Below, piece after piece: positions 17,646 to 36,038 of a DNA stretch of 64,000 nucleotides. The stretch lies in the NCBI GenBank assembly GCA_025350055.1, contig JANXYK010000022.1, positions 36,988 to 100,987 of the forward strand, given 5' to 3'. Under the pieces are notes generated by a model. That model was not told the origin of the DNA, made no database searches, and worked only from the letters and a program-made list of their open reading frames with translations. The position numbers and the translations under genes were made by a program. Source of the stretch: Gammaproteobacteria bacterium (GTDB lineage: Bacteria; Pseudomonadota; Gammaproteobacteria; Steroidobacterales; Steroidobacteraceae). The first letter of the stretch is position 1. Each line of letters opens with the position of its first letter.

Positions 17646-20483
17646 ATGCACGCCCTTGATCATGTCGATGCCGGTACACCCGCGAGCATAGCCACGCGCA
17701 CCGTCACGCTGGAGATCGATGGGGTTGCGACCTCGGTGCCTGAGGGGACCTCGATCATGCGCGCGGCCGCGATGGTGGATACGCGCATTCCGAAACTGTG
17801 CGCCACTGATAATCTCAAGGCCTTCGGCTCCTGCCGCCTGTGCCTGGTGGAGATCGAGGGTCGCAAGGGGTATCCGGCGTCCTGCACTACGCTGGTGAGC
17901 GAGGGCATGAAAGTGCATACGCAGTCGGAGCGACTCACCGAGTTGCGTCGCGGCGTGATGGATCTCTATCTCTCCGATCATCCGGCTGCGCTGATTGCGG
18001 CCGATGCGCCCGCGCGCACCGAGATCCGCGAGATGGCGCAGGCGCTGGGCATGACCAAGAGTGGCTACGCCAGCGATGGCGTGCGCCATGCGGGTCTGCC
18101 GAAGGACGAGAGCAATCCCTATTTCACTTTCGACCCGAACGCCTGCATCGTCTGCTCGCGCTGCGTGCGGGCCTGCGATGAAGTGCAGGGCACCCTGGCG
18201 CTGACCATCGAAGGGCGCGGCTTCGGCTCGCGCGTCGCGGCCAGCCAGGGCGAGAGTTTCCTGGATTCCGAGTGCGTGTCCTGCGGTGCCTGTGTGGAAG
18301 CCTGCCCGACCACGGCGCTGCAGGAAAAAACGCTGATCGCGGCAGCGACGCCGAAGCAGGCCACGACCACGACCTGCGCCTATTGCGGCGTGGGCTGTTC
18401 GCTGGTGGCCGAGGTCAGCAATGGCGAAGTGACTCGCATGGTGCCCGATCGCGATGGCCATGCGAACCAGGGCCACGCCTGTGTGAAGGGCCGCTTCGCC
18501 TACGGCTATGCGACGCACAAGGATCGCATCCGCAAGCCGATGATCCGCGCCAAGATCACCGACCCGTGGCAGGAAGTCTCGTGGGAAACCGCGCTCAATC
18601 ATGCGGCCAGCGAGTTCAAGCGCATCCAGGCCAGGTATGGGCGCGATTCGGTCGGCGGCATCACCTCTTCACGCTGCACTAACGAAGAAGCCTACCTGGT
18701 GCAGAAGCTGGTGCGTGCGGCATTCGGCAACAACAATGTCGATACCTGCGCGCGCGTCTGCCATTCGCCCACCGGTTACGGTTTGAAGCAGACGCTGGGT
18801 GAGTCGGCGGGCACGCAGGCTTTCAACTCCGTGATGAAGTCCGACGTGGTCATGCTGGTCGGTGCGAACCCGACCGAAGGCCATCCGGTATTCGCTTCGC
18901 AGTTGAAGCGCGCCCTGCGCGCCGGCGCGAAGCTGATCGTCGTCGATCCGCGCGCCATCGCGCTGGTGCGCACGCCGCATATCGAAGCGCAGCATCACCT
19001 GCAGCTGCTGCCGGGCACCAACGTCGCGCTGCTGACGGCGCTCGCACATGTGATCGTCACCGAGAAGCTGGCGAAAGAGAATTACGTCGCCGAGCGCTGC
19101 GAGAGCGAATCCTGGCAGCGCTGGGTCGCGGCGGTGTCGCGGCCAGAGAATTCGCCCGAGGCGAGTGCAGCGATCACCGGTGTGCCAGCCGCCGAAGTGC
19201 GCGCCGCGGCGCGCCTGTATGCCAATGCCGGCAATGGCGCGATCTATTACGGCCTCGGTGTCACCGAGCACAGCCAGGGCACGACCGCGGTGATGTGCAT
19301 CGCCAACCTCGCGATGGCCACCGGGAACCTGGGCCGCGAGGGCGTGGGCGTCAATCCGCTGCGCGGCCAGAACAATGTGCAGGGCTCCTGCGACGTGGGT
19401 TCGTTCCCGCACGAGCTCGCGGGTTACCGGCACATCTCCGACCCCAACACGCGCGCGCTGTTCGATGGCGCCTGGGGCGTGAAGCTGCTGGATGAACCGG
19501 GCCTGCGCATCCCGAACATGTTTGAGGCGGCGCTCGATGGCAGCTTCAAGGGCATCTACATCCAGGGCGAGGACATGGCGCAGTCCGACCCGAACACGCA
19601 GCATGTGGCTGCGGCCTTTTCGGCGATGGAATGCGTGGTGGTGCAGGACCTGTTCCTGAACGAGACCGCGCTCTATGCCCACGTGCTGCTGCCGGGCTCC
19701 TCGTTCCTCGAGAAGGATGGCACCTTCACCAACGCCGAGCGGCGCATCTCGCGCGTGCGCAAGGTGATGGAGCCGCTGGCCGGCCTCGCCGACTGGGAAG
19801 TCACGGTGGCCTTGTCGAACAAGCTCGGCTATCCGATGACTTACCAGCATCCGTCCGAGGTGATGGACGAGATCGCGCGGCTCACGCCGACCTTCCACGG
19901 GGTGACGTACGAGAAGATCGATCGGCTCGGCAGCGTGCAGTGGCCCTGCAACGAGGCGGCGCCCGAGGGCACGCCGACTATGCACATCGATCGCTTCGTG
20001 CGCGGCAAGGGTCGCTTCTTCGTCACGGACTACGTCGCCACCAGCGAACGGGTATCGGCACGCTTCCCGCTGCTGCTCACCACGGGTCGCATCCTCAGCC
20101 AGTACAACGTGGGCGCGCAGACGCGCCGCACGCACAATGTGGTCTGGCACGATGAAGACGTGCTGGAGATCAACCCGCACGATGCCGAGACGCGCGGCAT
20201 TGTCGATGGCGACTGGGTCGGCATCACGAGTCGTGCCGGTGAAACGGTGCTGCGTGCCGACGTGACCGAGCGCGTGCCGCCGAGCGTGGTGTATACGACT
20301 TTCCATTTCCCGGAATCCGGCGCGAATGTCGTTACCACCGAGCTTTCCGACTGGGCGACCAATTGCCCCGAGTACAAGGTGACCGCGGTGCAGGTGGTGA
20401 AGGTCGCGAAGCCTTCGGCCTGGCAGCAGCGCCATCGCGAACTGGTGGCGCGGCAGAAGATCAAGGGCCATGTGGTGTCGTAG
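17646..20483 (+). CDS. fdsA: formate dehydrogenase alpha subunit (molybdopterin, multiple Fe-S clusters)
   Basis: N-terminal 2Fe-2S and 4Fe-4S Cys clusters, CAYCGVGC MopB cluster, and a 945-aa Mo-bisPGD fold with Cys (not Sec) chemistry. Confidence 0.9.
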   Translation: MHALDHVDAGTPASIATRTVTLEIDGVATSVPEGTSIMRAAAMVDTRIPKLCATDNLKAFGSCRLCLVEIEGRKGYPASCTTLVSEGMKVHTQSERLTELRRGVMDLYLSDHPAALIAADAPARTEIREMAQALGMTKSGYASDGVRHAGLPKDESNPYFTFDPNACIVCSRCVRACDEVQGTLALTIEGRGFGSRVAASQGESFLDSECVSCGACVEACPTTALQEKTLIAAATPKQATTTTCAYCGVGCSLVAEVSNGEVTRMVPDRDGHANQGHACVKGRFAYGYATHKDRIRKPMIRAKITDPWQEVSWETALNHAASEFKRIQARYGRDSVGGITSSRCTNEEAYLVQKLVRAAFGNNNVDTCARVCHSPTGYGLKQTLGESAGTQAFNSVMKSDVVMLVGANPTEGHPVFASQLKRALRAGAKLIVVDPRAIALVRTPHIEAQHHLQLLPGTNVALLTALAHVIVTEKLAKENYVAERCESESWQRWVAAVSRPENSPEASAAITGVPAAEVRAAARLYANAGNGAIYYGLGVTEHSQGTTAVMCIANLAMATGNLGREGVGVNPLRGQNNVQGSCDVGSFPHELAGYRHISDPNTRALFDGAWGVKLLDEPGLRIPNMFEAALDGSFKGIYIQGEDMAQSDPNTQHVAAAFSAMECVVVQDLFLNETALYAHVLLPGSSFLEKDGTFTNAERRISRVRKVMEPLAGLADWEVTVALSNKLGYPMTYQHPSEVMDEIARLTPTFHGVTYEKIDRLGSVQWPCNEAAPEGTPTMHIDRFVRGKGRFFVTDYVATSERVSARFPLLLTTGRILSQYNVGAQTRRTHNVVWHDEDVLEINPHDAETRGIVDGDWVGITSRAGETVLRADVTERVPPSVVYTTFHFPESGANVVTTELSDWATNCPEYKVTAVQVVKVAKPSAWQQRHRELVARQKIKGHVVS

Positions 20484-20507: not shown

Positions 20508-21362
20508 ATGAACAGCGCCGCCGCTGCGGCCTCAGGCGCGGACGCGCGCGCAGCTACGCGTGCGGCCTCGCGTGTAGTCCGTCGCACGCAATACCGGCAT
20601 GGTGCGCCCACGATGGGCGAACGCGTGATCGCTGAAGAGACGGCAATCGCCTTTACCTACAATCGCGTCACCCATGCGGTGATGATGGCGACGCCGGCCG
20701 ATCTCGAGGATTTCGCGGTCGGCTTCAGCCTGGCCGAGGGCATCATCCACGCGCCCGCGGATATCGCGGCGCTGCAGATCGTGGCGGTGGATCTCGGCGT
20801 TGAGCTGCGCATGGATATCAGCGCCACGCTCGCCTCGCAGCTGGAGGCGCGCCGGCGCCACATCGCCGGCGTCAGCGGTTGCGGCATGTGCGGCCTGGAA
20901 AGCCTGGAACAGGCGATGCGCAGGCCACCGACCGTGACATCGCGGCTGACGGTGACGCCCGCGATGATCGCCGCGGCGATCGCGCAATTGCCGGCGCTGC
21001 AAGCGATCAACCAACTCACGCGCGCGGTGCACGCGGCGGCGTTCTGGCAGCCAGCCATTGGGCTGGTCGCGTTACGCGAAGATGTCGGTCGCCACAATGC
21101 GCTCGACAAACTGGCGGGTGCACTGACCAGAACCGGCATCGCAGCGGTCGAGGGCGTGGTGCTGCTCACCAGCCGCGTGTCGATCGAGCTGGTGCAGAAG
21201 GTGGCACTGATGGGCATGCCGATCATCGTGGCCGTGTCGGCGCCGACGGCACTGGCGGTACGGGTCGCCGAGGCCGCGGGCATCACGCTCATCGGCGTGG
21301 CGCGCGAGGATGGATTCGAGATTTTCACGCATGCGCAGCGCATTGCTGCATCGGGAGACTGA
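20508..21362 (+). CDS. fdhD: formate dehydrogenase accessory sulfurtransferase FdhD
   Basis: TPADLEDFAVGFSLAEGII, GCGMCG and GRHNALDK FdhD signatures. Confidence 0.85.
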   Translation: MNSAAAAASGADARAATRAASRVVRRTQYRHGAPTMGERVIAEETAIAFTYNRVTHAVMMATPADLEDFAVGFSLAEGIIHAPADIAALQIVAVDLGVELRMDISATLASQLEARRRHIAGVSGCGMCGLESLEQAMRRPPTVTSRLTVTPAMIAAAIAQLPALQAINQLTRAVHAAAFWQPAIGLVALREDVGRHNALDKLAGALTRTGIAAVEGVVLLTSRVSIELVQKVALMGMPIIVAVSAPTALAVRVAEAAGITLIGVAREDGFEIFTHAQRIAASGD

Positions 21363-21363
21363 G

Positions 21364-21576
21364 ATGGAAGCGGAACGACTGGTCAGCATGGCCAATCAGA
21401 TCGCCGTGTTCTTCGAACACGAGGAACCCGCCAAGGCGGTGGAGCGCACCGCCGATCACCTGCGCAAGTACTGGGATCCGCGCATGCGCAAGGCGATCAT
21501 CGCGCACCTCAAGAGCGGCGGCGCTGGTCTGGCGCCGCTGGTGAAAAGCGCGGTGGGTCTGCTGCCGCAGACGTGA
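21364..21576 (+). CDS. fdsD: formate dehydrogenase delta subunit
   Basis: 70-aa protein LVSMANQIAVFFE....HL.KYWDPRMR typical of FdsD. ATG 21364 is 1 nt after the fdhD stop. Confidence 0.75.
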   Translation: MEAERLVSMANQIAVFFEHEEPAKAVERTADHLRKYWDPRMRKAIIAHLKSGGAGLAPLVKSAVGLLPQT

Positions 21577-22322
21577 GCACCCGCCCGGCCAGCATTTTCC
21601 TGGTCGATGACGAACCCGCCATCGCCGAGGCGGTCAGCTTCGCGCTGCAGGCCGAGGGTTTCCGCTGCCGCCATTTCGCCACTGGCGGCGACTGTCTGGC
21701 CGCACTGGCCGGCGAGCAACCCGACCTGGTGCTGCTGGACATCGGCCTGCCCGATGGCAATGGCTTCGACTTCTTCAGGCGCATCCGCGAGCAGGGCGAT
21801 GTGCCGGTGGTATTCCTGACGGCGCGCAAGGAAGAGATCGATCGCGTGGTCGGGCTCGAGATGGGCGCCGACGACTACGTGGTCAAGCCCTTCAGCCTGC
21901 GCGAGCTGATGGCGCGGGTGCGCATGGTGATCCGTCGCAGTGCGGCGGCGCCAGCGAGCAATGCGGTGTCCGCGACTGCAGCCACGCCGGGTGGTGGTTC
22001 GAGCTCGGCGGGTGCTGCGCCGACTGTGGTTGGTCGATTCCAGCAGGATTCGCTGCGACGTCAGATCCGCTACGCGGGCAGTGCACTCGACCTGACGCTG
22101 CACGAATACCGCCTGCTCGAAGTACTGCTGCGCCACGTGGGTCGCGTGTTCACGCGCGCGCAACTGCTCGATCAGGCCTGGGAAGCGCCCGATCATCGCC
22201 TCGATCGCACCATCGACAGCCACATCAAGAGCCTGCGCGCGAAACTGCGTGCCATCGACGCGACTGCCGATCCGATCCACACGCACCGCGGCATGGGCTA
22301 TTCGCTGGAAATCGGCGCTTGA
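21573..22322 (+). CDS. creB: OmpR-family response regulator, CreB-like, with a low-complexity Ala/Ser/Gly linker insert
   Basis: IFLVDDEP receiver and HRGMGYSL winged helix, paired with a CreC-like kinase. GTG 21573 overlaps the fdsD stop (GTGA). Confidence 0.65.
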   Translation: MSTRPASIFLVDDEPAIAEAVSFALQAEGFRCRHFATGGDCLAALAGEQPDLVLLDIGLPDGNGFDFFRRIREQGDVPVVFLTARKEEIDRVVGLEMGADDYVVKPFSLRELMARVRMVIRRSAAAPASNAVSATAATPGGGSSSAGAAPTVVGRFQQDSLRRQIRYAGSALDLTLHEYRLLEVLLRHVGRVFTRAQLLDQAWEAPDHRLDRTIDSHIKSLRAKLRAIDATADPIHTHRGMGYSLEIGA

Positions 22323-23764
22323 GCATCCGCGCCAAGATCTTCCTGGTATTCGTTGCCGCGGTGGTGGCCGGCTTCGGCCTGCTGGCTTACTGGGTCGCCG
22401 GCGACTTGCGCTCGCGCTACAGCGAATCCTTCGAAGAGGTCATGGTCGATGGTGCGCATCTGCTGGCCGCGCAGCTCGCACAGAGCTGGGAGCAGCCGGC
22501 CACCGATCGATTTGCGGCGTTGCAGGGCGCGATGCAGACGCTGCGCGAGCAGACTTTCTCGGCGCGCATTTACTCCGTCGACAAGACCAGTGCCGATATC
22601 CGCGTCTACGTGACCGATGACCTCGGCGATCTGCTCTACGACTCGCGGCCGGGTTCCACACCGGGCGAAGACTATTCGCGCTGGATCGATGTGGCGCGCA
22701 CGATCGCGGGCGGCTACGGCGCGCGCACCACGGAAGAACCCGCGGCCGCGACGACCACGGTCTCGGTAGCCTACGTGGGCGCGCCCATCCTCGTGAACGG
22801 CAAGCTCGTGGGTGTGGTGAGTCTCGGCAAACCCAAGACCAACATCCAGCGCTTCGTCGACAACGCGCGCCGCAAGCTGATCTATGCGGTGCTGGCCGCC
22901 TCCGGTGTCGCCATCATCCTGGCGCTGCTGCTGTACCTGTGGGTCTCGCGCCCGCTGCAGTCGCTGGTCGAATATGCGCATGCGGTAGGTGAGGGCCGCA
23001 GCGAACATCTGCCGCTGCTGGGTGACAACGAGATCGGCCGCGTCGGCGAGGCGATCGAGACGATGCGCAAGGCGCTCGAGGACAAGGCCTATGTCGAAAC
23101 CTACGTGCAGTCGCTAACGCACGAGGTGAAGAGCCCGCTGACCGCAATCCGTGCCAGCGCCGAGCTGCTCGCAGGCGAGGTGCCCGCTGAACGGCGCGTT
23201 GCATTCGTGCAGACCATCGAGAGCGAAGTCGATCGTCTGAGCGATATTTCTGATCGGCTGCTGGAGCTCGCGGCACTCGAGCGCAGTGGGCGCTTGCGCC
23301 ACGCCGAGCCGGTGGCACTGCATGCGCTGGCAGCTCGGGTTGCGGCTGCAACGCGGGCCAGCGCCGCGGCGCGCGGCGTGAGCGTCACCGAGAGCTACAG
23401 TGGGAGCGACGCGGTGCGCGGTGACCCGCTGCTACTGCAGCAGGCGATCGACAACCTGCTGCGCAACGCGCTGGATTTCTCAGGTGCAGGGCAGACCGTG
23501 GCACTCAGTGCCAGCGCCGACAACCTGGGCGTCACGATCAGCGTGCAGGACGAGGGCCCCGGCATTCCCGAGTACGCGCGCGAGCGAATCTTCGACCGCT
23601 TCTATTCACTGCCGCGGCCGGCGAGCGGCCGCAAGTCCACGGGCCTCGGCCTCAACTTCGTGCGCGAAGTGGCCCAGCTGCACGGGGGCAGCATCACGAT
23701 CGAGAATCCGCCGCGTGGCACGCTGGCGCTGCTGTTCATTCCCTGGCGGCCGCCCTACGCCTGA
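22319..23764 (+). CDS. creC: sensor histidine kinase, CreC-like
   Basis: Periplasmic-domain motifs DYSRWIDV, YGARTT and VVSLGKP. H-box LTHEVKSPLTAIR. C-terminal RIFDRFYSLPR..GLGLNFV matches my recollection of E. coli CreC. TTGA overlap with creB. Confidence 0.65.
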   Translation: MSIRAKIFLVFVAAVVAGFGLLAYWVAGDLRSRYSESFEEVMVDGAHLLAAQLAQSWEQPATDRFAALQGAMQTLREQTFSARIYSVDKTSADIRVYVTDDLGDLLYDSRPGSTPGEDYSRWIDVARTIAGGYGARTTEEPAAATTTVSVAYVGAPILVNGKLVGVVSLGKPKTNIQRFVDNARRKLIYAVLAASGVAIILALLLYLWVSRPLQSLVEYAHAVGEGRSEHLPLLGDNEIGRVGEAIETMRKALEDKAYVETYVQSLTHEVKSPLTAIRASAELLAGEVPAERRVAFVQTIESEVDRLSDISDRLLELAALERSGRLRHAEPVALHALAARVAAATRASAAARGVSVTESYSGSDAVRGDPLLLQQAIDNLLRNALDFSGAGQTVALSASADNLGVTISVQDEGPGIPEYARERIFDRFYSLPRPASGRKSTGLGLNFVREVAQLHGGSITIENPPRGTLALLFIPWRPPYA

Positions 23765-23801
23765 GGACACGCCGCACCGCTGACCCCGGCGGCCGCGCGA
23801 T

Positions 23802-23828
23802 TCCACACGTTCTCCACGTCAATTCCAC
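23802..23828 (+). promoter_or_regulatory. three direct TCCAC repeats with exact 11-bp phasing (cre-tag-like candidate response-regulator site)
   Basis: TCCAC at 23802-06, 23813-17 and 23824-28 (TTCCAC / TCTCCAC / TTCCAC), 60-86 bp upstream of ATG 23888. A GGAG SD sits at 23877-80. Confidence 0.5.
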
Positions 23829-23887
23829 GCCCGCACCACAGTGCGGCTGGAAACTGGCAGCGTCGAAGCCACCCATGGAGAACCCTC

Positions 23888-25888
23888 ATGATCGCCATCA
23901 AGACCCGCCTGCGCCGGCTGTGCACGGTGCTTGCGCTGGTCAGTGTTTTCATCCTGTCCTTCAGCATGAGTCGCGCCGCCGGCGAGCCCGAAACCCCGCA
24001 GTCGCCGTACTTCGCAGTCCAGAACGACTCGGGTCTCGACCAGTTCCCGATGAAGGACAGCAAGATCACGGTGCGCCTGAACGGCGTGATCGCGAGCGTC
24101 CATGTGCGCCAGCACTATCGCAACGAGGGCAAGGCGCCGATCAACGCCCGCTACATCTTTCCGGGCTCCACTCGCGCTGCCGTCAATGCGATGACGATGA
24201 CGATCGGCGATCGCCGGCTGGTGGCGCAGATCAAGGAGAAGCAGCAGGCGCGGCAGATCTTCGCGGCCGCGAAAGCCGCGGGCCAGACAGCCTCGCTCCT
24301 CAGCCAGCAGCGCCCGAATGTGTTTTCGATGGATGTCGCCAACATCGTCGCGGGTGACGATGTCGTGGTCGACATGGAGTACACCGAATTCCTCAGCGCC
24401 AACGAGGGCGTGTACGAATTCATGTACCCGGGCGTGGTCGGTCCGCGCTATGGCGGTGATGCCGATCGCGCGGGACCTGGCCAGGCAGTCGCGTGGATCT
24501 CGAACCCGTACCTGCGCAAGGGCAAGGACAGTGCCACCACGCAGGACATCGAAGTGCAGCTGGCTTCGCCGATCGTGATCCATGACCTGCAGTCGCCCAC
24601 GCACCAGATCATCACGCGCTGGAGCGGCCCCGGCAACGCCGTGGTGCGCCTCAACGAGCCGCGCGAGAGCGCCGGCAATCGCGACTACGTGCTGCGCTAC
24701 CGATTGCAGGACAACGCCATCGTCTCGGGCATCACGCGCTTCACGGCCGGCAATGAAAACTACTTCATGCTGCAGGCCGAGCCGCCCAAGCGCGTGGCGC
24801 GCGCCGACCTGCCGGCGCGCGACTACGTGTTCATCCTCGACATCTCGGGTTCGATGGAGGGCTTTCCGCTCACGACCGCCAAATCGCTGATCGACAAGTT
24901 GCTCGCCGGCCTCAACAGCAACGACCGCTTCAACATCCTGTTTTTTTCCGGCGGCTCGCAGACCCTGAGCCCGGCCTCGCTCCCCGTGACGCCGGAGAAC
25001 CTGGCGCTGGCGCGCGAGATGCTGAGCCACATGTCGGGTGGCGGTGGCACCGAACTGTTGCCGGCGTTGCAACAGGCGCTCGCGATGCCGGTGGCGGAAG
25101 GCACCTCGCGCAGTCTCGTGGTGATCACCGATGGCTACATCACCGCCGAGGGCAGCGCCTTCCGGCTGGTGGACGAAAACCTCGGCCACAACAACCTGTT
25201 CGCCTTCGGCATCGGCAGCGCCGTGAACCGCTTCCTGATCGAGGGACTGGCGAAGGTGGGTCGCGCCGAAGCCTTCGTGGTCAGCAACGAGAACGACGCG
25301 GCGCGCGAAGCCGAGCGCTTCCGCAACTACATCTCGGCGCCGGTTCTGACCGACATCAAGGTGTCGGGCAATGGCGTGGAGCTGTATGACACCGAGCCCG
25401 CGGCGCAGCCCGACCTGCTGGCCGAGCGTCCGATCCTGGTGCTGGGCAAATACCGTGGCGCCAGCGGCACTGCCAGCATCGAGCTCTCGGGCATTGCCGG
25501 CAGTGGTCCGAAGAGCTGGAAGTTCGCACTCAGCGATGCCGACAAGGATCGCAACCTCCCGCTGTTGTGGGCGCGCAAGCGGCTCGAGCGCCTGTATGTG
25601 TTTCCCAATGCGGCCGACACGGCGCGCGAGGAAATCCTAAGCCTCGGCATGAAGTATTCGCTGCTCACCAGCGCGACTTCATTCATCGCGGTTGACGAGA
25701 AGATCTCGAACAGTGGTGCGCCGGCGGCTGATGTCAAGCAGCCCCAGCCACTCCCGGCGGGTGTGGAGAACACTGCCGTCGGCGCACCGCTCCAGCCGGC
25801 GCCCGAGCCCGAGGCACCGCTGCTGGTCTGGTTTGCTGCCCTGTTGCTGGCGCTGCGCGCATTGTTGCGCAGGTCGAGTGGTGTTTAA
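23888..25888 (+). CDS. secreted VIT + von Willebrand factor A domain protein with C-terminal PEP-CTERM-like sorting tail
   Basis: Signal peptide; VIT-like N-terminus (..YIFPGSTRAAVNAMTMTIGDRRLVAQIKEK..RPNVFSMDVANI); MIDAS FILDISGSMEG. The tail is APEPE, then the hydrophobic stretch APLLVWFAALLLALRALL, then RR. Confidence 0.85.
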   Translation: MIAIKTRLRRLCTVLALVSVFILSFSMSRAAGEPETPQSPYFAVQNDSGLDQFPMKDSKITVRLNGVIASVHVRQHYRNEGKAPINARYIFPGSTRAAVNAMTMTIGDRRLVAQIKEKQQARQIFAAAKAAGQTASLLSQQRPNVFSMDVANIVAGDDVVVDMEYTEFLSANEGVYEFMYPGVVGPRYGGDADRAGPGQAVAWISNPYLRKGKDSATTQDIEVQLASPIVIHDLQSPTHQIITRWSGPGNAVVRLNEPRESAGNRDYVLRYRLQDNAIVSGITRFTAGNENYFMLQAEPPKRVARADLPARDYVFILDISGSMEGFPLTTAKSLIDKLLAGLNSNDRFNILFFSGGSQTLSPASLPVTPENLALAREMLSHMSGGGGTELLPALQQALAMPVAEGTSRSLVVITDGYITAEGSAFRLVDENLGHNNLFAFGIGSAVNRFLIEGLAKVGRAEAFVVSNENDAAREAERFRNYISAPVLTDIKVSGNGVELYDTEPAAQPDLLAERPILVLGKYRGASGTASIELSGIAGSGPKSWKFALSDADKDRNLPLLWARKRLERLYVFPNAADTAREEILSLGMKYSLLTSATSFIAVDEKISNSGAPAADVKQPQPLPAGVENTAVGAPLQPAPEPEAPLLVWFAALLLALRALLRRSSGV

Positions 25889-26675
25889 TCCACTGACACA
25901 AGCCCGGCAGTCACTGCTTTGGTGGCTGCCGGCCGCTGGCATCGCTGCAGCGCTGAAGTGGCACTTCAGCGCTGCAGACTCCTGGGCGCTGAATTGGATG
26001 CTGCAGCCGCTGTCGCTTGCACTGCACGGGTTCACCGGTTGGAATTTCCTGCGCACCGCGGATGGCGACTGGACAAGCCGCGATGCCGGCATCGCGCTGG
26101 TGAAAGCCTGCGCAGGCATCAACTTCATGACCATGTCGTTCATCGCCTGGTGCCTGACGTTGCAGCCGAAGTGGGCCGACGCACCGGTGCTGTCGCCAGT
26201 CGCGTTGTGGCCGAAGCGAACGCCGTGGCAGCCGTTGCCGCCCACGCCGGTGTCGGCGTCGGTGCCGGCGCAGCCGCGTCCCGAGCTACTCGAGTGCGCA
26301 CGGCGGCTGGCAGCGGCGCTGCTGCTCGCCTGGCTCAGCGCACTCGCCGTCAATACGCTGCGCGTGATCGCCGTGGTGCACTGGCAACCGTCATTGCAAC
26401 AGTGGATGGCACCTGAAACCGCGCATCGGCTGATCGGCATAGTGATCTACCTGAGCGCACTCACGCTGCAGCTGCTGCCGGGCGAGGGGCGGCGCTGGAA
26501 CAAGGCCGCGCTTCACGGCGCGCTGATCTATGGCGCCGTGATGCTGATCCTGCCCATGTTGAGTGGCAACGCCGTGGCGAGCCCGGCGCAATACGTCGAG
26601 CATGCACTCGCGGTGCTGATCGTCATGGTGCCGCTGCTCGCGGCGGCGCTGCTCAGCCGATATGGAACACGTTGA
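25878..26675 (+). CDS. compact exosortase/archaeosortase-family intramembrane protein (about 265 aa, about 7 TM)
   Basis: Motifs in the expected order inside TM helices: ACAGI (Cys 26109-11), NTLRV (Arg 26361-63) and AHRLIG (His 26424-26). GTG 25878/25881 overlaps the TAA of the VIT gene (25886-88). Track ORF start 25692 rejected. Confidence 0.7.
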   Translation: MVFNPLTQARQSLLWWLPAAGIAAALKWHFSAADSWALNWMLQPLSLALHGFTGWNFLRTADGDWTSRDAGIALVKACAGINFMTMSFIAWCLTLQPKWADAPVLSPVALWPKRTPWQPLPPTPVSASVPAQPRPELLECARRLAAALLLAWLSALAVNTLRVIAVVHWQPSLQQWMAPETAHRLIGIVIYLSALTLQLLPGEGRRWNKAALHGALIYGAVMLILPMLSGNAVASPAQYVEHALAVLIVMVPLLAAALLSRYGTR

Positions 26676-27021
26676 GCTTGTTGCCGTCGAGGTCGCGGAA
26701 GTAGCCGGCGTAGAAGCCATCGCCGCGCGGGCCGGGCGCGCCTTCGTCCTTGCCGCCCAGTGCCATGGCCTTGCCATGCAGCGCATCGACCTTGGCCTTG
26801 CTGTCGACCACCAGCGACACCATTGAACCGTTGCCTATGGTCGCGGGTTTCTTGTCATAGGGCAGGATTACGCCGAGCCCGGGCAGCTGCGGGTTCACGC
26901 TCCAGGCCACCAGCCGCTCGGATTCCATCATGCGCTTGGCGCCCAGTTCGCCCAGCAGTGCATCGTAGAAGCCCGCAGCGCGTTGCAGATTGTTGGTGCC
27001 CAGTGTGACGTAGCCGATCAT
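26653..27021 (-). CDS. VOC/glyoxalase-family protein
   Basis: 122 aa, MIGYVTLGTNNL...FYAGYFRDLDGNKL typical of the glyoxalase/bleomycin-resistance fold. Confidence 0.8.
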   Translation of the reverse strand: MIGYVTLGTNNLQRAAGFYDALLGELGAKRMMESERLVAWSVNPQLPGLGVILPYDKKPATIGNGSMVSLVVDSKAKVDALHGKAMALGGKDEGAPGPRGDGFYAGYFRDLDGNKLNVFHIG

Positions 27022-27151
27022 GGTGCGCTCCTTGAGTGGGGATTCCTGAGATCGGCGTGCATGCTGCGCCCGCCACCATCGATCGTCAATTCCTGGTCGC
27101 CCGCGTACACTAGCGCCGCCACAGTCAGCCAGAAACCCGGGAGTCGCTGTC

Positions 27152-27544
27152 GTGAAAATTTACCTGCTCTGTTCCGCGTTGCTGGTGATCCTGTATTTCC
27201 TGCTGGCCTTCAATGTGTCGATGGTGCGTGGCAAGACCCGCATTGGCGTGGGCAGCAACACCGACCCCTCCGGCCCGCTCAACAAGGCAATACGCGCGCA
27301 TGGCAACGCCGCCGAGTACCTGCCGCTGTTCGTGACGATCTTCCTGTATTTCAGCCTGGTGGGCGCCAGTCGCTGGGTGGCCTGGGTGACGGTCGCGGTC
27401 ACGATATGCCGGTTTTCGCACGCGCTGGGCATGTACCTGTCGGCGGATCTGAACAAGGCGCAGCCGTTCCGCTTCATCGGCGCACTGGGCACCTATGCTG
27501 GCGGCATTGCGCTGGGCGTGGCACTGCTGCTGCGGTGCTGTTAG
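27152..27544 (+). CDS. MAPEG-family membrane protein (YecN-like)
   Basis: 130 aa, 3-4 TM, with IRAHGNAAEYLP matching the MAPEG/YecN motif. GTG start with GGGAG SD. Confidence 0.75.
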   Translation: MKIYLLCSALLVILYFLLAFNVSMVRGKTRIGVGSNTDPSGPLNKAIRAHGNAAEYLPLFVTIFLYFSLVGASRWVAWVTVAVTICRFSHALGMYLSADLNKAQPFRFIGALGTYAGGIALGVALLLRCC

Positions 27545-32993: not shown

Positions 32994-35900
32994 TCAGGCC
33001 TCGCTCACGCGCGGCGGCATCAGCAGGTACATCACCGGCGTCACGAGTCTTGCGAGCAGCGTCGAGGTGATCAGCCCGCCGATGATCACCCAAGCCATGG
33101 GCGAGTAGATGCCCACATTCTGCAAAGCCAGCGGCAGCAGGCCACCGATGGCCGTGAGTGAGGTCAGCAGTATCGGCAGGAAGCGCGTTTCGCCGGCGCG
33201 CTCAATGGCCTCAGTCAGCGGCACGCCCTGCGCGCGCAGCTGGTTGGTAAGATCGACCAGCAGGATCGAATTCTTGATCTCGATGCCGATCAGGGCCACG
33301 AAGCCGATGCTGGCGACGAAGGAGATGTTGTTGCCGGTCAGCAGTAGCATGGCCAGGCCGCCCATCACGCCCAGCGGCACCACCGTGAGCACGATCAGCG
33401 TGGCCTTGAAGCTGCCGAACTCGAGCACCAGGATCGCGAAGATGCCGAACAACGCAACGATGATCGCCGTGCCGATGCCGGCGAAGGACTCCGAGCTCGA
33501 TTCGGCCTCGCCCCCCAGCACGAAGGAATAGCCGCGCGGCCAGTCCATGGCCTTGAGACGTTGCACCACGGCCTGCGTGACGCGACCGATGTTTTCGCCG
33601 GGCAGCACGTCGGCATCGATGGTGATCGCGCGCGAGCGGTTGAAGCGCTGGATGATGGTCGGCGCGGGCTCGAACACCGGGGTCGCGAGCTGCGTGAGCG
33701 GCAGCAGCGCACCGTTGCGATTGGCGACGCGCATCTGGTCGAGCGCCCCAAGATCGGCGCGCGCTGCCACTGGCGTGCGCACCACCATCGCATACTGCTC
33801 GCCATCGGCGGCCTTGAAGTTGCCGGCGGGCAGGCCGCCCACCGCGAGGCGCGCAGCGCGATCGATCTCCGCGGTGGCGACGCCCAGCAGCCCGGCCTTC
33901 TGCGAATCGATCTGCAGCCGCAGGTTGGTGCGCGGCACGCGCAGCGGATTGCTGACATCGCGCGTGCCGGGCGTGTCCTTGATCAGCTGCTGGATGCGGT
34001 GCGCCAGGCTGTCGAGCGTGCCCAGGTCCTCACCCAGGATGCGCACCGCGATAGGCGCGGTGATCGGCTGGCCCTGCACGAATTCCTTCACATAGATGTG
34101 CGCGGCCGGATACTTCGCGAAGTCGGCGCGCAGGCTCTCATAGAGGCGCGGCGTGGCGCGCGTGTCATAGCGTTCGAGCTGCACGAACAGTTCCGCATAG
34201 TTGGCCGAATCGTTGCGCACGATGTGGTTGTAGTAGATCTGCGGATTGCCGTGGCCGAGATTGGCGAAGTAGCCGCGCACGCCGGGCGTACGCGCCAGGC
34301 GCGCCTCGACGAATTTAAGCGCGCGATCGGTGGCCGCGAAACTGCTGCCATTCGGCAACTCGACGCTGATCAGGAATTGTGGCGTGTCCGCCTTGGGAAA
34401 CAGGCTGCTGCCCAGTACCTGCGTCAGGCCCAGCGACAGCAGCAGTGAGCCGCCGATCGCCACGATCGCGGTGGCGCGCGGCCGCTGCAGGCAGTAGTGC
34501 AGCGCCGGGCGATAGTAGCGGTGGATCATGCCCATCACGCGCTCGAGCAGCCGGTTGTGCTGCGGCTCGGTCTCCGGCGGCAGCAGGCGGCTCGCCAGAA
34601 AGGGGATGATGAACAGCGCGATCAGGAGCGACCCCACGATTGTCGCCACTACGGCGGTAGGCAGCACGCGAATGAACTTGCCCGCGTTGCCGGGCAGCGC
34701 CAGCAGCGGCAGGAAGGCGAAGATCAGCGTTGCGGTGCAGCCGAGGATTGCGGCGAAGATCTGCTGCGTGCCGCTGAGTGCTGCCTGCAGCCGCGTGGCG
34801 CCCTCGCGCAGGTGCCGGGCGATGTTCTCGACCACCACGATCGAATCATCGACCAGCAGGCCGAGCGCCACCACGAAGCCGGCGATGGAGATCTGGTTGA
34901 GTGAATAGCCGATGAAATACAGCACCGCGATGCCGAAGGCCAGCGACAGCGGCAGTGAGATCATCACGATGCCGGCAGCGCGCAGGCCCAGCGGCAGCAG
35001 TGTCAGCGCCACCAGCGCCACGGCGATCGAGAAATCGATGTACAGCCGATTGAGGCGATGGGTGACATTGCGCGCCTGCTCGAAGCCGCGCTCCAGGCGT
35101 ATGTCCTTCGGTAGCGTGGGCTGGTAGCGGTCCAGCGCACCATCGACATCCTGTTGTACGCGCGGGTTGTTGTAGCCGTCCTTCTGGTTGGCGGTGACGA
35201 ACAGCGCACGCTTGCCGTTGTAGCGACCGACGTAGCTGAGCGTGGCACTGTCCCAGCTCACCTCGGCGATGTCGCGTACGCGCACGACGCGCCCCGCGGC
35301 GCCGCCGACCACGGTGTCGCGCACCTGATCGAGCGTGGTGTAACCGGTCGAGGTCTTGAGGCTGAAGCTGCGATTGCCCACATCCACGTAGCCTGCGGGC
35401 ATGTTGGAGTTTTCGCTCTGCAGGGCCTGCAGCAACTGACCCGGCGTGATGTGCATCTGGCCCATGCGCGCCAGATCCACCGCGATGCGCAACTCGCGCC
35501 GCGGGTAGGCCCAGCTCTCGGCGGTGCGGATACCGGGCACGGCCTTGAGCGTGTCCTTGAGCGTGCGCGCGGCATCCTCGAGCTGCGCGTAGGAAGCCGT
35601 CTCGGAGACCAGTGCGAGCTGCAGGACATTCACCTGCGCCGGACTGATTTTCTTGATCTCGAGTGAGGCCAGTTCCGCGGGCAGCGTGGGGCGCAGCGCA
35701 TTCACTTCGCGCTGCATCTCGTCGTATTTCTTGTCCGGATCGGTCGAGGCCTCGAACTCCACCGCGACGAAGGCGACGCCATCGACCAGCGTGGTCTCGA
35801 GCTTGTGCACGCCATCGAGTTCGGCGATGCGATCCTCGATCGGCTTCGCCACCAGGCGCTCCAGGTCCTGCGGATCAGCGCCCGGCCAGATCGCGGTGAC

Positions 35901-36038
35901 GAAGTAGGCCGCGAACTTGATGTGCGGGTCTTCCTCGCGCGGAATCTGCTGGAAGGTGTAGAGGCCAAGCACCGCCAGGCACAGGAACGCGACCAGCGTG
36001 AACTGGTGGCGACGGATCGGCATTTCGAGCAGTTTCAT
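32994..36038 (-). CDS. RND efflux permease (AcrB/HAE family)
   Basis: 1014 aa, 12 TM, two large periplasmic loops. Confidence 0.9.
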   Translation of the reverse strand: MKLLEMPIRRHQFTLVAFLCLAVLGLYTFQQIPREEDPHIKFAAYFVTAIWPGADPQDLERLVAKPIEDRIAELDGVHKLETTLVDGVAFVAVEFEASTDPDKKYDEMQREVNALRPTLPAELASLEIKKISPAQVNVLQLALVSETASYAQLEDAARTLKDTLKAVPGIRTAESWAYPRRELRIAVDLARMGQMHITPGQLLQALQSENSNMPAGYVDVGNRSFSLKTSTGYTTLDQVRDTVVGGAAGRVVRVRDIAEVSWDSATLSYVGRYNGKRALFVTANQKDGYNNPRVQQDVDGALDRYQPTLPKDIRLERGFEQARNVTHRLNRLYIDFSIAVALVALTLLPLGLRAAGIVMISLPLSLAFGIAVLYFIGYSLNQISIAGFVVALGLLVDDSIVVVENIARHLREGATRLQAALSGTQQIFAAILGCTATLIFAFLPLLALPGNAGKFIRVLPTAVVATIVGSLLIALFIIPFLASRLLPPETEPQHNRLLERVMGMIHRYYRPALHYCLQRPRATAIVAIGGSLLLSLGLTQVLGSSLFPKADTPQFLISVELPNGSSFAATDRALKFVEARLARTPGVRGYFANLGHGNPQIYYNHIVRNDSANYAELFVQLERYDTRATPRLYESLRADFAKYPAAHIYVKEFVQGQPITAPIAVRILGEDLGTLDSLAHRIQQLIKDTPGTRDVSNPLRVPRTNLRLQIDSQKAGLLGVATAEIDRAARLAVGGLPAGNFKAADGEQYAMVVRTPVAARADLGALDQMRVANRNGALLPLTQLATPVFEPAPTIIQRFNRSRAITIDADVLPGENIGRVTQAVVQRLKAMDWPRGYSFVLGGEAESSSESFAGIGTAIIVALFGIFAILVLEFGSFKATLIVLTVVPLGVMGGLAMLLLTGNNISFVASIGFVALIGIEIKNSILLVDLTNQLRAQGVPLTEAIERAGETRFLPILLTSLTAIGGLLPLALQNVGIYSPMAWVIIGGLITSTLLARLVTPVMYLLMPPRVSEA

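Follow-up and report, generated by a model that had tools for sequence, protein, structure and literature searches.

The stretch analysed here, a window of 64,000 nucleotides (nt) of contig JANXYK010000022.1 from a gammaproteobacterium of the family Steroidobacteraceae, carries on its plus strand a compact unit of four genes (21573-26675). A CreB-like response regulator and a CreC-like sensor kinase are followed in this unit by a 666-amino-acid (aa) protein with VIT and vWA domains, hereafter the cargo, and by a small polytopic membrane protein of the exosortase K (XrtK) type. The four open reading frames (ORFs) are collinear, the start of creC overlapping the stop of creB by 4 nt, and a set of phased pentamers occupies the spacer in front of the cargo gene. 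The module is probably a CreBC-regulated, dedicated exosortase/cargo operon occupying the position that creD has beside creBC in enterobacteria and pseudomonads; we speak of an operon in the place of creD, with a creD-like promoter, because the pentamer array matches the layout seen at creD in Escherichia coli. The unit is common in uncultured bacteria, and in the window it comprises the following features.

21573-26675, plus strand: four-gene unit of collinear ORFs
21573-22322, plus strand: creB-like response regulator of the OmpR/PhoB family, 249 aa (NF008296, Pfam)
22319-23764, plus strand: creC-like sensor histidine kinase, 481 aa (NF008312, Pfam)
23802-23839, plus strand: four cre-tag-like pentamers in 11-bp phase, presumed CreB site
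23850-23855, plus strand: tentative -10-like hexamer GAAACT, inferred from a (G/C)AnACTG block conserved in loci with the gene order of the window
23877-23882, plus strand: ribosome-binding site GGAGAA, 5 nt before the cargo ATG and kept in homologous spacers
23888-25888, plus strand: cargo, 666-aa VIT + vWA protein (Pfam, TIGR03788 homology)
23888-23977, plus strand: predicted Sec signal peptide of the cargo, residues 1-30, read from the translation
24839-24853, plus strand: MIDAS motif D318-I-S-G-S322 (DISGS), residues 318-322
25790-25885, plus strand: sorting signal of the cargo, with PAPEPE, hydrophobic helix LLVWFAALLLALRALL and basic RR, a conserved tail
25692/25878-26675, plus strand: XrtK-type exosortase (TIGR04287), starting at GTG 25878 or GTG 25881
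26109-26111, 26361-26363 and 26424-26426, plus strand: catalytic-type residues Cys78, Arg162 and His183, from alignments

The two regulatory proteins belong to the CreBC system by curated equivalog models that they match over their full length. The regulator, with Response_reg and Trans_reg_C domains in Pfam, scores 292.4 bits against the NCBIfam CreB model NF008296, a small margin over the cut-off of 273, and the kinase (HAMP, HisKA and HATPase_c) reaches 509.8 bits against the CreC model NF008312, whose cut-off is 356. This last alignment runs from position 1 to 474 of the 477 in the model, so the periplasmic sensor part of the kinase is CreC-like too. Full-length identity to the proteins of E. 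coli K-12 is 44% for CreB and 38% for CreC, and the DNA-binding C-terminal stretch is near-identical, with DRTIDSHIKSLRAKLRAI...PIHTHRGMGYSL in the CreB of the window and DRTVDTHIKTLRAKLRAI...PINTHRGMGYSL in that of E. coli. The adjacent creD expected as a target is missing and the VIT-vWA cargo follows instead: none of the nine window ORFs of CreD size (430-500 aa) tested, in a search that was not exhaustive, turned out to be creD, and CreD is absent from the Pfam tables of genes neighbouring related loci. Orthology to PdsRS, the two-component system of the Pds sortase system, was rejected since the CreB and CreC models score far better, TIGR03787 (145 bits) and TIGR03785 (115 bits) staying well under their cut-offs. 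In E. coli, CreBC governs a dispersed regulon (PMC4689548), and CreBC/BlrAB play a part in the beta-lactam resistance of Pseudomonas aeruginosa and Aeromonas (PMC13214185).

The cargo shows a VIT domain at residues 56-165 (E 4.6e-31) and a vWA domain at 314-469 (VWA_3/VWA in Pfam), the latter with a complete metal-ion-dependent adhesion site (MIDAS) in which D318, S320, S322, T388 and D415 are invariant among 40 homologues. Its signal peptide, MIAIKTRLRRLCTVLALVSVFILSFSMSRA followed by AGE, has a basic n-region, a hydrophobic core and small residues at -3 and -1, with cleavage predicted near SRA/A, and no lipobox Cys was found in it on reading the translation. The best curated family for the cargos of the window and its relatives is TIGR03788, the sortase target of marine proteobacteria (403-435 bits); the window protein scores 402.7 bits, under the cut-off of 551.65, in a match that spans cargo residues 57-658 and profile positions 2-623. 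The cargo is a full-length homologue of this sortase target and not a member of the family, as it stays below the cut-off, carries no LPXTG tail and has an exosortase, not a sortase, as the neighbouring enzyme. Moreover, a profile built from the 40 homologues found PARP4 (E 4.9e-55) and ITIH4 (E 8.6e-33) in the PDB over the VIT-vWA region, and the AlphaFold2 (AF2) model of the cargo (predicted local distance difference test, pLDDT, 73.4) matched ITIH1 (6FPY) with E 1e-33 and template-modelling (TM) scores of 0.59/0.64 over ~630 columns. Public databases name such cargos 'VIT domain-containing', 'VWA domain-containing' or 'Ca-activated chloride channel family', and none of these annotation names recognises the sorting signal. 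A classification of the cargo as an MSEP-CTERM protein (TIGR04286) was rejected on score: the cut-off is 150 bits, whereas the window cargo reaches 10.8 and the best of its relatives 17.7.

The last gene of the unit encodes a polytopic membrane protein of about six transmembrane helices with conserved Cys, Arg and His, the residue set characteristic of exosortases and archaeosortases. No exchange of C78 (within KACAGINF), N159, R162 or H183 is seen in 24 close and 52 distant homologues, down to ~20-25% identity, and R184 is nearly invariant. The protein scores 63.2 bits in two stretches against TIGR04287, the XrtK model, over the cut-off of 55, whereas the generic exosortase models end narrowly under theirs (22.5 against 23 for TIGR04178, 19.0 against 25.7 for PF09721), both covering only the second half of the protein. 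These narrow shortfalls are explained by a lineage-specific Pro-rich loop, PVALWPKRTPWQPLPPTPVSASVPAQPRP (residues ~100-133; 26175-26276), which splits the match of the hidden Markov models (HMMs). This insertion of ~30 residues has a low pLDDT and is missing in all relatives below ~80% identity, and relatives without it pass both TIGR04287 and TIGR04178. Among close relatives, P0016 reaches 30.1 bits and P0040 33.7 against TIGR04178. Relatives score 55.6-134.8 bits against TIGR04287; all 52 of those sampled match this model, and 47 of the 52 match TIGR04178 (E<=1e-3). The AF2 model of the enzyme is all-helical (pLDDT 87.6, predicted TM score 0.83), and a Foldseek search of this model against the PDB returned nothing below E=1.

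With regard to the start of the exosortase, GTG 25878 gives 265 aa and an 11-nt overlap with the TAA of the cargo, and GTG 25881 gives 264 aa and an 8-nt overlap; the second is used in the public call on a contig of the metagenome-assembled genome (MAG) GCA_043724525.1, which encodes a 100% identical cargo. The N-termini of the relatives align with this start region, and in other loci, too, gene calls show the stop of the cargo overlapping the start of the exosortase. An HMMER profile search, exhaustive over 1.84 billion representatives, found 1530 exosortase homologues, with 1051 clusters at E<=1e-10 and 225 at E<=1e-30, and the idea of a rare family, taken from a word-indexed search with 32 matches, was dropped for this reason. 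Several relatives are already labelled 'exosortase K' by JGI and NCBI. The enzymes of the module measure 240-300 aa against the 163 positions of the TIGR04287 model. A preliminary description of the locus, made from the sequence alone, had read it as a CreB-like regulator and a CreC-like kinase followed, where creD would normally stand, by a 666-aa secreted VIT + vWA protein with a DISGS MIDAS and by a 265-aa polytopic protein with exosortase-type Cys/Arg/His whose start overlaps the cargo stop; models, domains and alignments bear out all these points. The comparison with exosortase-family models that it proposed came out positive for XrtK and half a bit short for the generic signature.

The neighbourhood survey also proposed there was carried out on 107 distinct exosortase relatives with flanks, gathered from homologue look-ups, a scan of the GTDB species genomes (28 loci, all in MAGs, with a peptide pattern that favours the clade of the window) and a scan of metagenome contigs (the best 80 of 360 confirmed loci). 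The four proteins of the window served as tblastn queries to type these neighbourhoods, with flanks of up to 10 kb. Wherever 700 bp or more of sequence precede the exosortase (77/77 loci), a VIT-vWA homologue is encoded before it on the same strand, in 75 of these loci within 400 bp, so that the target is found next to its sorting enzyme across genomes, as in the 'dedicated' sorting systems defined by Haft and Varghese 2011 (PMC3237569). CreB/CreC homologues flank the cargo-exosortase pair in 60 of the 63 loci in which this could be determined, in more than one arrangement. Thirty-seven loci, those of the clade of the window, show the order creB-creC-cargo-xrt (type A); another 21 show cargo-xrt-creB-creC (type B) and encode exosortases only 23-31% identical to that of the window; in two further loci CreBC is convergently oriented. 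The CreB and CreC models were run on one adjacent pair for each non-standard arrangement, and their cut-offs were passed in both (320/539 bits in the type B locus L042, 299/574 bits in the convergent locus L013). A linkage with CreBC that is retained even though the gene order differs argues strongly that the genes are functionally coupled. Beyond the four genes the surroundings vary, with fdh/glyoxalase, POR/bcs, ICL/aceK or MoxR/DUF58 genes. The 28 GTDB genomes belong to Gammaproteobacteria, Acidobacteriota and Polyangiaceae, and their lineages include Steroidobacteraceae, Chromatiales, Sedimenticolaceae, Thiogranum, Methylomonas, Vicinamibacterales and Polyangiaceae. In the two loci where the cargo is more distant (L083 and L087, both of type B) a radical-SAM-like gene stands between cargo and exosortase; in L083 (4648-6108) this is a 486-aa ORF with a CxxxCxxC motif (CPHHCDFCY) and, by eye, a B12-binding-like N-terminus, and L087 has an equivalent gap.

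The cargo of the window ends in ...QPAPEPEAPLLVWFAALLLALRALLRRSSGV, which combines, together with the N-terminal signal peptide, the tripartite architecture of PEP-CTERM proteins: the motif APEPE, the hydrophobic helix LLVWFAALLLALRALL and the basic RR. P637, P639, E640 and P641 are invariant among the 40 homologues, the pattern P-x-P-E-P being kept in all of them, and the tails of ~90 loci align in a conserved QPLPLPxGVSxxAVG block, the motif itself, a helix of ~17-20 residues and an Arg/Lys cluster. The motif reads PAPEPE in tails of the Steroidobacteraceae type, PMPEPE in the Chromatiales type and VPEPE or VPEPG in type B. The PEP-CTERM-like tail of the preliminary description holds as regards architecture and conservation, but TIGR02595, the PEP-CTERM HMM, gives no match to the window tail even when this is scanned alone; among type B tails, the VPEPE tail of L122 passes its cut-off of 16 with 22.0 bits and the L106 tail lies just under it with 15.3. 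The window tail is best described as a divergent PEP-CTERM derivative, so called by homology and architecture and not by HMM membership. In line with what was proposed at the outset, the window holds neither exopolysaccharide (EPS) genes nor, by a regular-expression scan of its 64 kb, any further PEP-type tail. A side observation concerns the MSEP-CTERM model, whose positions 822-913 are weakly matched by cargo C-termini (residues 560-655 in the window, and that of L122). Likewise, the C-terminal helices of two long XrtK-like enzymes (L122:6962-7732 and L107:6959-7867) weakly match positions ~73-203 of this 920-position TIGR04286 (E 1.7e-5 and 2e-3). These similarities suggest that the MSEP-CTERM proteins of Bacteroidetes may combine pieces related to both partners of the module.

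The creC-cargo spacer (23765-23887) measures 123 bp, not 124 as first stated, and does hold the phased TCCAC repeats announced for it, in the form of four pentamers: TCCAC at 23802, 23813 and 23824, and ACCAC at 23835, with a phase of exactly 11 bp. In shuffles of the window, 0 matches are expected for TCCAC-N6-TCCAC-N6-TCCAC. A search of both strands of 57 distinct related loci (727 kb) gave 48 occurrences of the triple TYCAY-N6-TYCAY-N6-TYCAY, each of them within -260 to +30 of a cargo start and on the sense strand, with 0 elsewhere in the 727 kb; it is also present in type B loci, such as L042, where the two-component system lies downstream. When CreBC is adjacent (n=45), 30 loci have a triple, 12 a double and 3 neither, and a triple or double is found in 0/3 of the loci without CreBC. 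Arrays typically have 4-5 pentamers with the consensus yTYCAY and end ~51 nt 5' of the start codon. The cre/blr tag upstream of creD is TTCAC-N6-TTCAC and is described as critical if activated CreB/BlrA is to bind (PMC4689548). At the creC-creD junction of E. coli K-12 we read TTCAC-N6-TTCAC-N5-TTCAA-N6-CCCAC, ending ~40 nt before the creD ATG, and the array at 23802-23839 can be taken as a putative cre tag in the promoter of the target. The creD promoter of E. coli (L128:4102-4138) carries four phased pentamers, whereas the tag as published has two; the foremost of the four lie within the end of creC.

The looser double TYCAY-N6-TYCAY has one other match in the 64 kb (34901-34916, minus strand), for a chance expectation of 0.9 per window, and this isolated double is consistent with chance. 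It falls inside the coordinates of a long minus-strand ORF (32994-36038, 1014 aa), of the same length (1014 aa) as the ACR_tran gene, a resistance-nodulation-division (RND) pump gene, that edges loci L001 and L005. A consensus scan found no sigma-70 promoter in 21200-27200 and no canonical -35, and the one weak terminator-like signal that a terminator scan of the same interval gave falls within creC, at its 3' end. The missing -35 is compatible with an activator-dependent, PhoB-like promoter in which boxes replace the -35, and we do not count it as evidence.

From these data we infer a mechanism in which the CreC-type kinase would sense a signal and phosphorylate the CreB-type regulator, which in turn would bind as tandem dimers to the four phased TYCAY pentamers, equal to two cre tags. 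In the promoter of the creC-cargo spacer the pentamers would stand in for a -35 element, and CreB binding would switch on a bicistronic cargo-exosortase operon. The cargo, an adhesion-type protein with an intact MIDAS, similar to the heavy chains (ITIH) of inter-alpha-trypsin inhibitor (ITI), would be exported by Sec and retained in the inner membrane by its C-terminal helix, and the exosortase would be translationally coupled to it through the overlapping stop and start codons. The enzyme is expected to recognise PAPEPE and to cut off the helix and the basic tail with its Cys/Arg/His site, either releasing the cargo or transferring it to an acceptor of the envelope or surface, in a system of one enzyme for one adjacent substrate. 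The inducing signal is probably, at low confidence and by analogy with CreBC/BlrAB and with the Pds system of Shewanella, a cell-envelope or peptidoglycan stress, which is favoured because of the beta-lactam links of CreBC/BlrAB and the effects of a mutation in the Pds kinase. In Shewanella algae, the point mutation pdsS G547W raised transcript levels of the sortase 126-fold, of its target 388-fold and of pdsO 799-fold, and this mutation was associated with carbapenem resistance (PMC11580497).

Several points speak against the module as a CreBC-regulated, dedicated operon and have to be weighed with it. The XrtK margin is only 8 bits, the generic exosortase signature is missed by 0.5 bit, and the window tail stays outside the PEP-CTERM HMM. 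The single-cargo status is taken from the scan of the 64-kb window. The pentamers of the window are mostly TCCAC, not TTCAC, and their role as a CreB site is putative. The pair can exist without the two-component system, since three Acidobacteriota loci encode cargo and exosortase but show no CreBC in their flanks. The GTG of creB at 21573 overlaps by 4 nt the stop of an fdsD-like ORF (21310-21576), and CreBC may therefore serve additional targets. Finally, cleavage, acceptor and localisation are extrapolated from other exosortase/archaeosortase systems.

Exosortase K has been described for Bacteroidetes together with an MSEP-CTERM protein, and the simplest alternative would be that the unit is an ordinary member of this curated system with nothing distinct about it. 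The enzyme passes TIGR04287, a model that all 52 sampled relatives match, public labels already speak of exosortase K, and the cargo tails show weak similarity to TIGR04286. We nevertheless consider this alternative unlikely, since several points do not fit: the cargos fail the MSEP-CTERM model and find their best match in TIGR03788, the named taxa are Gammaproteobacteria, Acidobacteriota and Polyangiaceae and not Bacteroidetes, and the enzymes are much longer than the model. Moreover, neither 'exosortase K' nor 'XrtK' or 'MSEP-CTERM' in the relevant sense was found in the literature searched, so a link with CreBC is not covered there, and the picture of the canonical system used in this comparison is that of the TIGRFAMs entries.

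Two other explanations question a single part of the operon each. The small protein could be a membrane partner, anchor or chaperone, the cargo helix then being the permanent inner-membrane anchor of a periplasmic vWA protein; the processing function of the subfamily is, after all, only predicted, the window protein lies under the TIGR04178 cut-off and no solved structure resembles its model. A plain anchor would not need the invariant P-x-P-E-P right before the helix, however, and Cys78, Arg162 and His183, the residue set typical of exosortases and archaeosortases, are invariant down to ~23% identity. Together with the 47/52 relatives that pass or match TIGR04178 and with the loop insertion that accounts for the sub-threshold score in the window, these facts make this explanation very unlikely. 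It is more improbable still that CreBC is a neighbour for unrelated reasons, as a global regulator, with the pentamers bound by another factor or functionless. The linkage is kept in both gene orders, with CreBC upstream in 37 loci and downstream in 21. The array is confined to the cargo promoter and missing from the loci that lack CreBC, and its sequence, spacing and position agree with those of the CreB site defined by experiment; these results outweigh the dispersed regulon of E. coli (PMC4689548), the three loci that lack CreBC and the possible co-transcription of creB with formate dehydrogenase accessory genes in the window. The dedicated, CreBC-regulated operon is, in consequence, the reading that we retain; the preliminary description is supported in this respect, and the checks run for its refutation did not go against it.

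The module is best classed as a probable dedicated system of the exosortase kind, with the Pds sortase system (TIGR03784/TIGR03788, PdsR/PdsS, PdsO) as its counterpart. The cargos of both are homologous over nearly their whole length, and as in Pds a single enzyme would serve one adjacent target while an adjacent two-component system is expected to control expression. On the other hand, the enzyme of the module is a polytopic exosortase unrelated to sortase, its signal is PxPEPE/helix/basic and not LPXTG, its cargo remains under the TIGR03788 cut-off, its two-component system is of the CreBC type and no OmpA-like PdsO gene takes part in it. As compared with XrtK/MSEP-CTERM, the module shares the enzyme subfamily by HMM, the compact enzyme and the adjacency of the substrate gene, but the adjacent substrate is not an MSEP-CTERM protein, the motif is PAPEPE, PMPEPE or VPEPE, the taxa lie outside the Bacteroidetes, the enzyme is ~100 aa longer than the model and CreBC is linked. 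The similarity to creBC-creD or blrAB-blrD of E. coli, Pseudomonas, Aeromonas and Stenotrophomonas lies in a regulator and a kinase that pass the CreB/CreC equivalogs and in a downstream gene preceded by phased TTCAC-like pentamers with 11-bp spacing; the target in the module is a VIT-vWA cargo with its exosortase instead of the inner-membrane protein CreD, and there is no creA. A tripartite C-terminal signal and a polytopic enzyme with Cys/Arg/His are also found in the XrtA/PEP-CTERM/EpsH systems of exopolysaccharide loci (PMC1569441), and the module enzymes give weak HMM matches to XrtA and EpsH. In contrast to those systems, the module is probably one-to-one and not many-to-one, has no conserved EPS biosynthesis genes nearby, uses a much shorter enzyme and, in the window, has a tail under the PEP-CTERM HMM.

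A more remote relationship joins the cargo to the VIT-vWA proteins ITIH1-4 and PARP4, which share its fold and domain order (TM about 0.6 with 6FPY) and with which the cargo, its MIDAS intact, has ~15% identity, the processing machinery and the acceptor being unrelated. The heavy chains of ITI are attached via their C-terminus after removal of a C-terminal propeptide. Covalent linkage of ITI heavy chains to a polymer, first chondroitin sulfate and then hyaluronan, is reported in PMC7170535. The parallel is suggestive of a glycan acceptor, as an analogy and not as evidence. A bolder proposal, which we hold to be unlikely, would make CreBC the dedicated switch of the exosortase K/ITIH-like module across much of the sampled environmental diversity, with creD as just one alternative local output: envelope (peptidoglycan) stress would lead to the covalent fixation of the MIDAS-bearing cargo to an envelope or matrix glycan, as ITI heavy chains are fixed on hyaluronan, in a functional equivalent of the Pds system that accompanies beta-lactam tolerance in Shewanella.

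In terms of novelty, the pairing of the cargo with an exosortase had been counted as the third of its architecture with a different sorting enzyme, after sortase and XrtN, which falls short: VIT/vWA homologues with LPXTG, GlyGly-CTERM or PEP-CTERM tails (the last in Verrucomicrobium) were reported by Haft and Varghese 2011 (PMC3237569), and the present case is not a first because signal swapping on this cargo was thus already published. Such swaps, and XrtK as a curated subfamily, are known. The one-to-one pairing of every sampled XrtK-like enzyme with a TIGR03788-like cargo appears undescribed, as do the CreBC link in two gene orders and the cre-tag array at the cargo promoter; a description of the module was found neither in the literature searched nor as a curated cargo model in NCBIfam release 20.

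Exosortases are among the least characterised protein-sorting enzymes, with substrates that are usually many and scattered and an elusive acceptor. In this regard, the module offers a minimal system for the study of exosortase function, its enzyme being compact, its regulator recognisable and its one adjacent substrate predictable in structure. CreBC would gain in turn a second conserved local target beside creD, the physiological function of which is described as little studied (PMC4689548). In a wider view, the ITIH-like VIT-vWA family has become associated more than once with C-terminal sorting machines that are not homologous to one another (sortase, rhombosortase and exosortase), and at least two of these systems are under their own two-component switch, which together suggest that the selected trait is the inducible surface display or attachment of a VIT-vWA protein, with an interchangeable sorting chemistry. 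All 28 genomes of the GTDB scan are uncultured MAGs, and direct experiments will need heterologous reconstruction.

Some minor observations refer to the surroundings of the unit and to single loci. The fdsD-like ORF upstream of creB is preceded by fdsA-like (17646-20483) and fdhD-like (20508-21362) genes, and creBC may be read through from this formate dehydrogenase operon in the genome of the window; in the relative locus L001 a gap and a 92-aa ORF intervene at the equivalent place upstream of creB. At the other end, a glyoxalase-family gene (26653-27021, minus strand) converges on the exosortase with a 23-nt overlap at its 3' end, an arrangement kept in the closest relatives. The Steroidobacteraceae MAG STL-PRO115 has two complete cassettes, L026 (JAXMGO010000024.1) and L035 (JAXMGO010000003.1), and the cargo of L035 shows frame breaks with loss of the PEP motif in the called frame, by pseudogenisation or assembly error. 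In one Steroidobacteraceae MAG, a pro-kumamolisin/S8-S53 peptidase gene (L022:2582-4804, minus strand) stands between creC and the cargo, placing the two-component system and its presumed target 2.5 kb apart.

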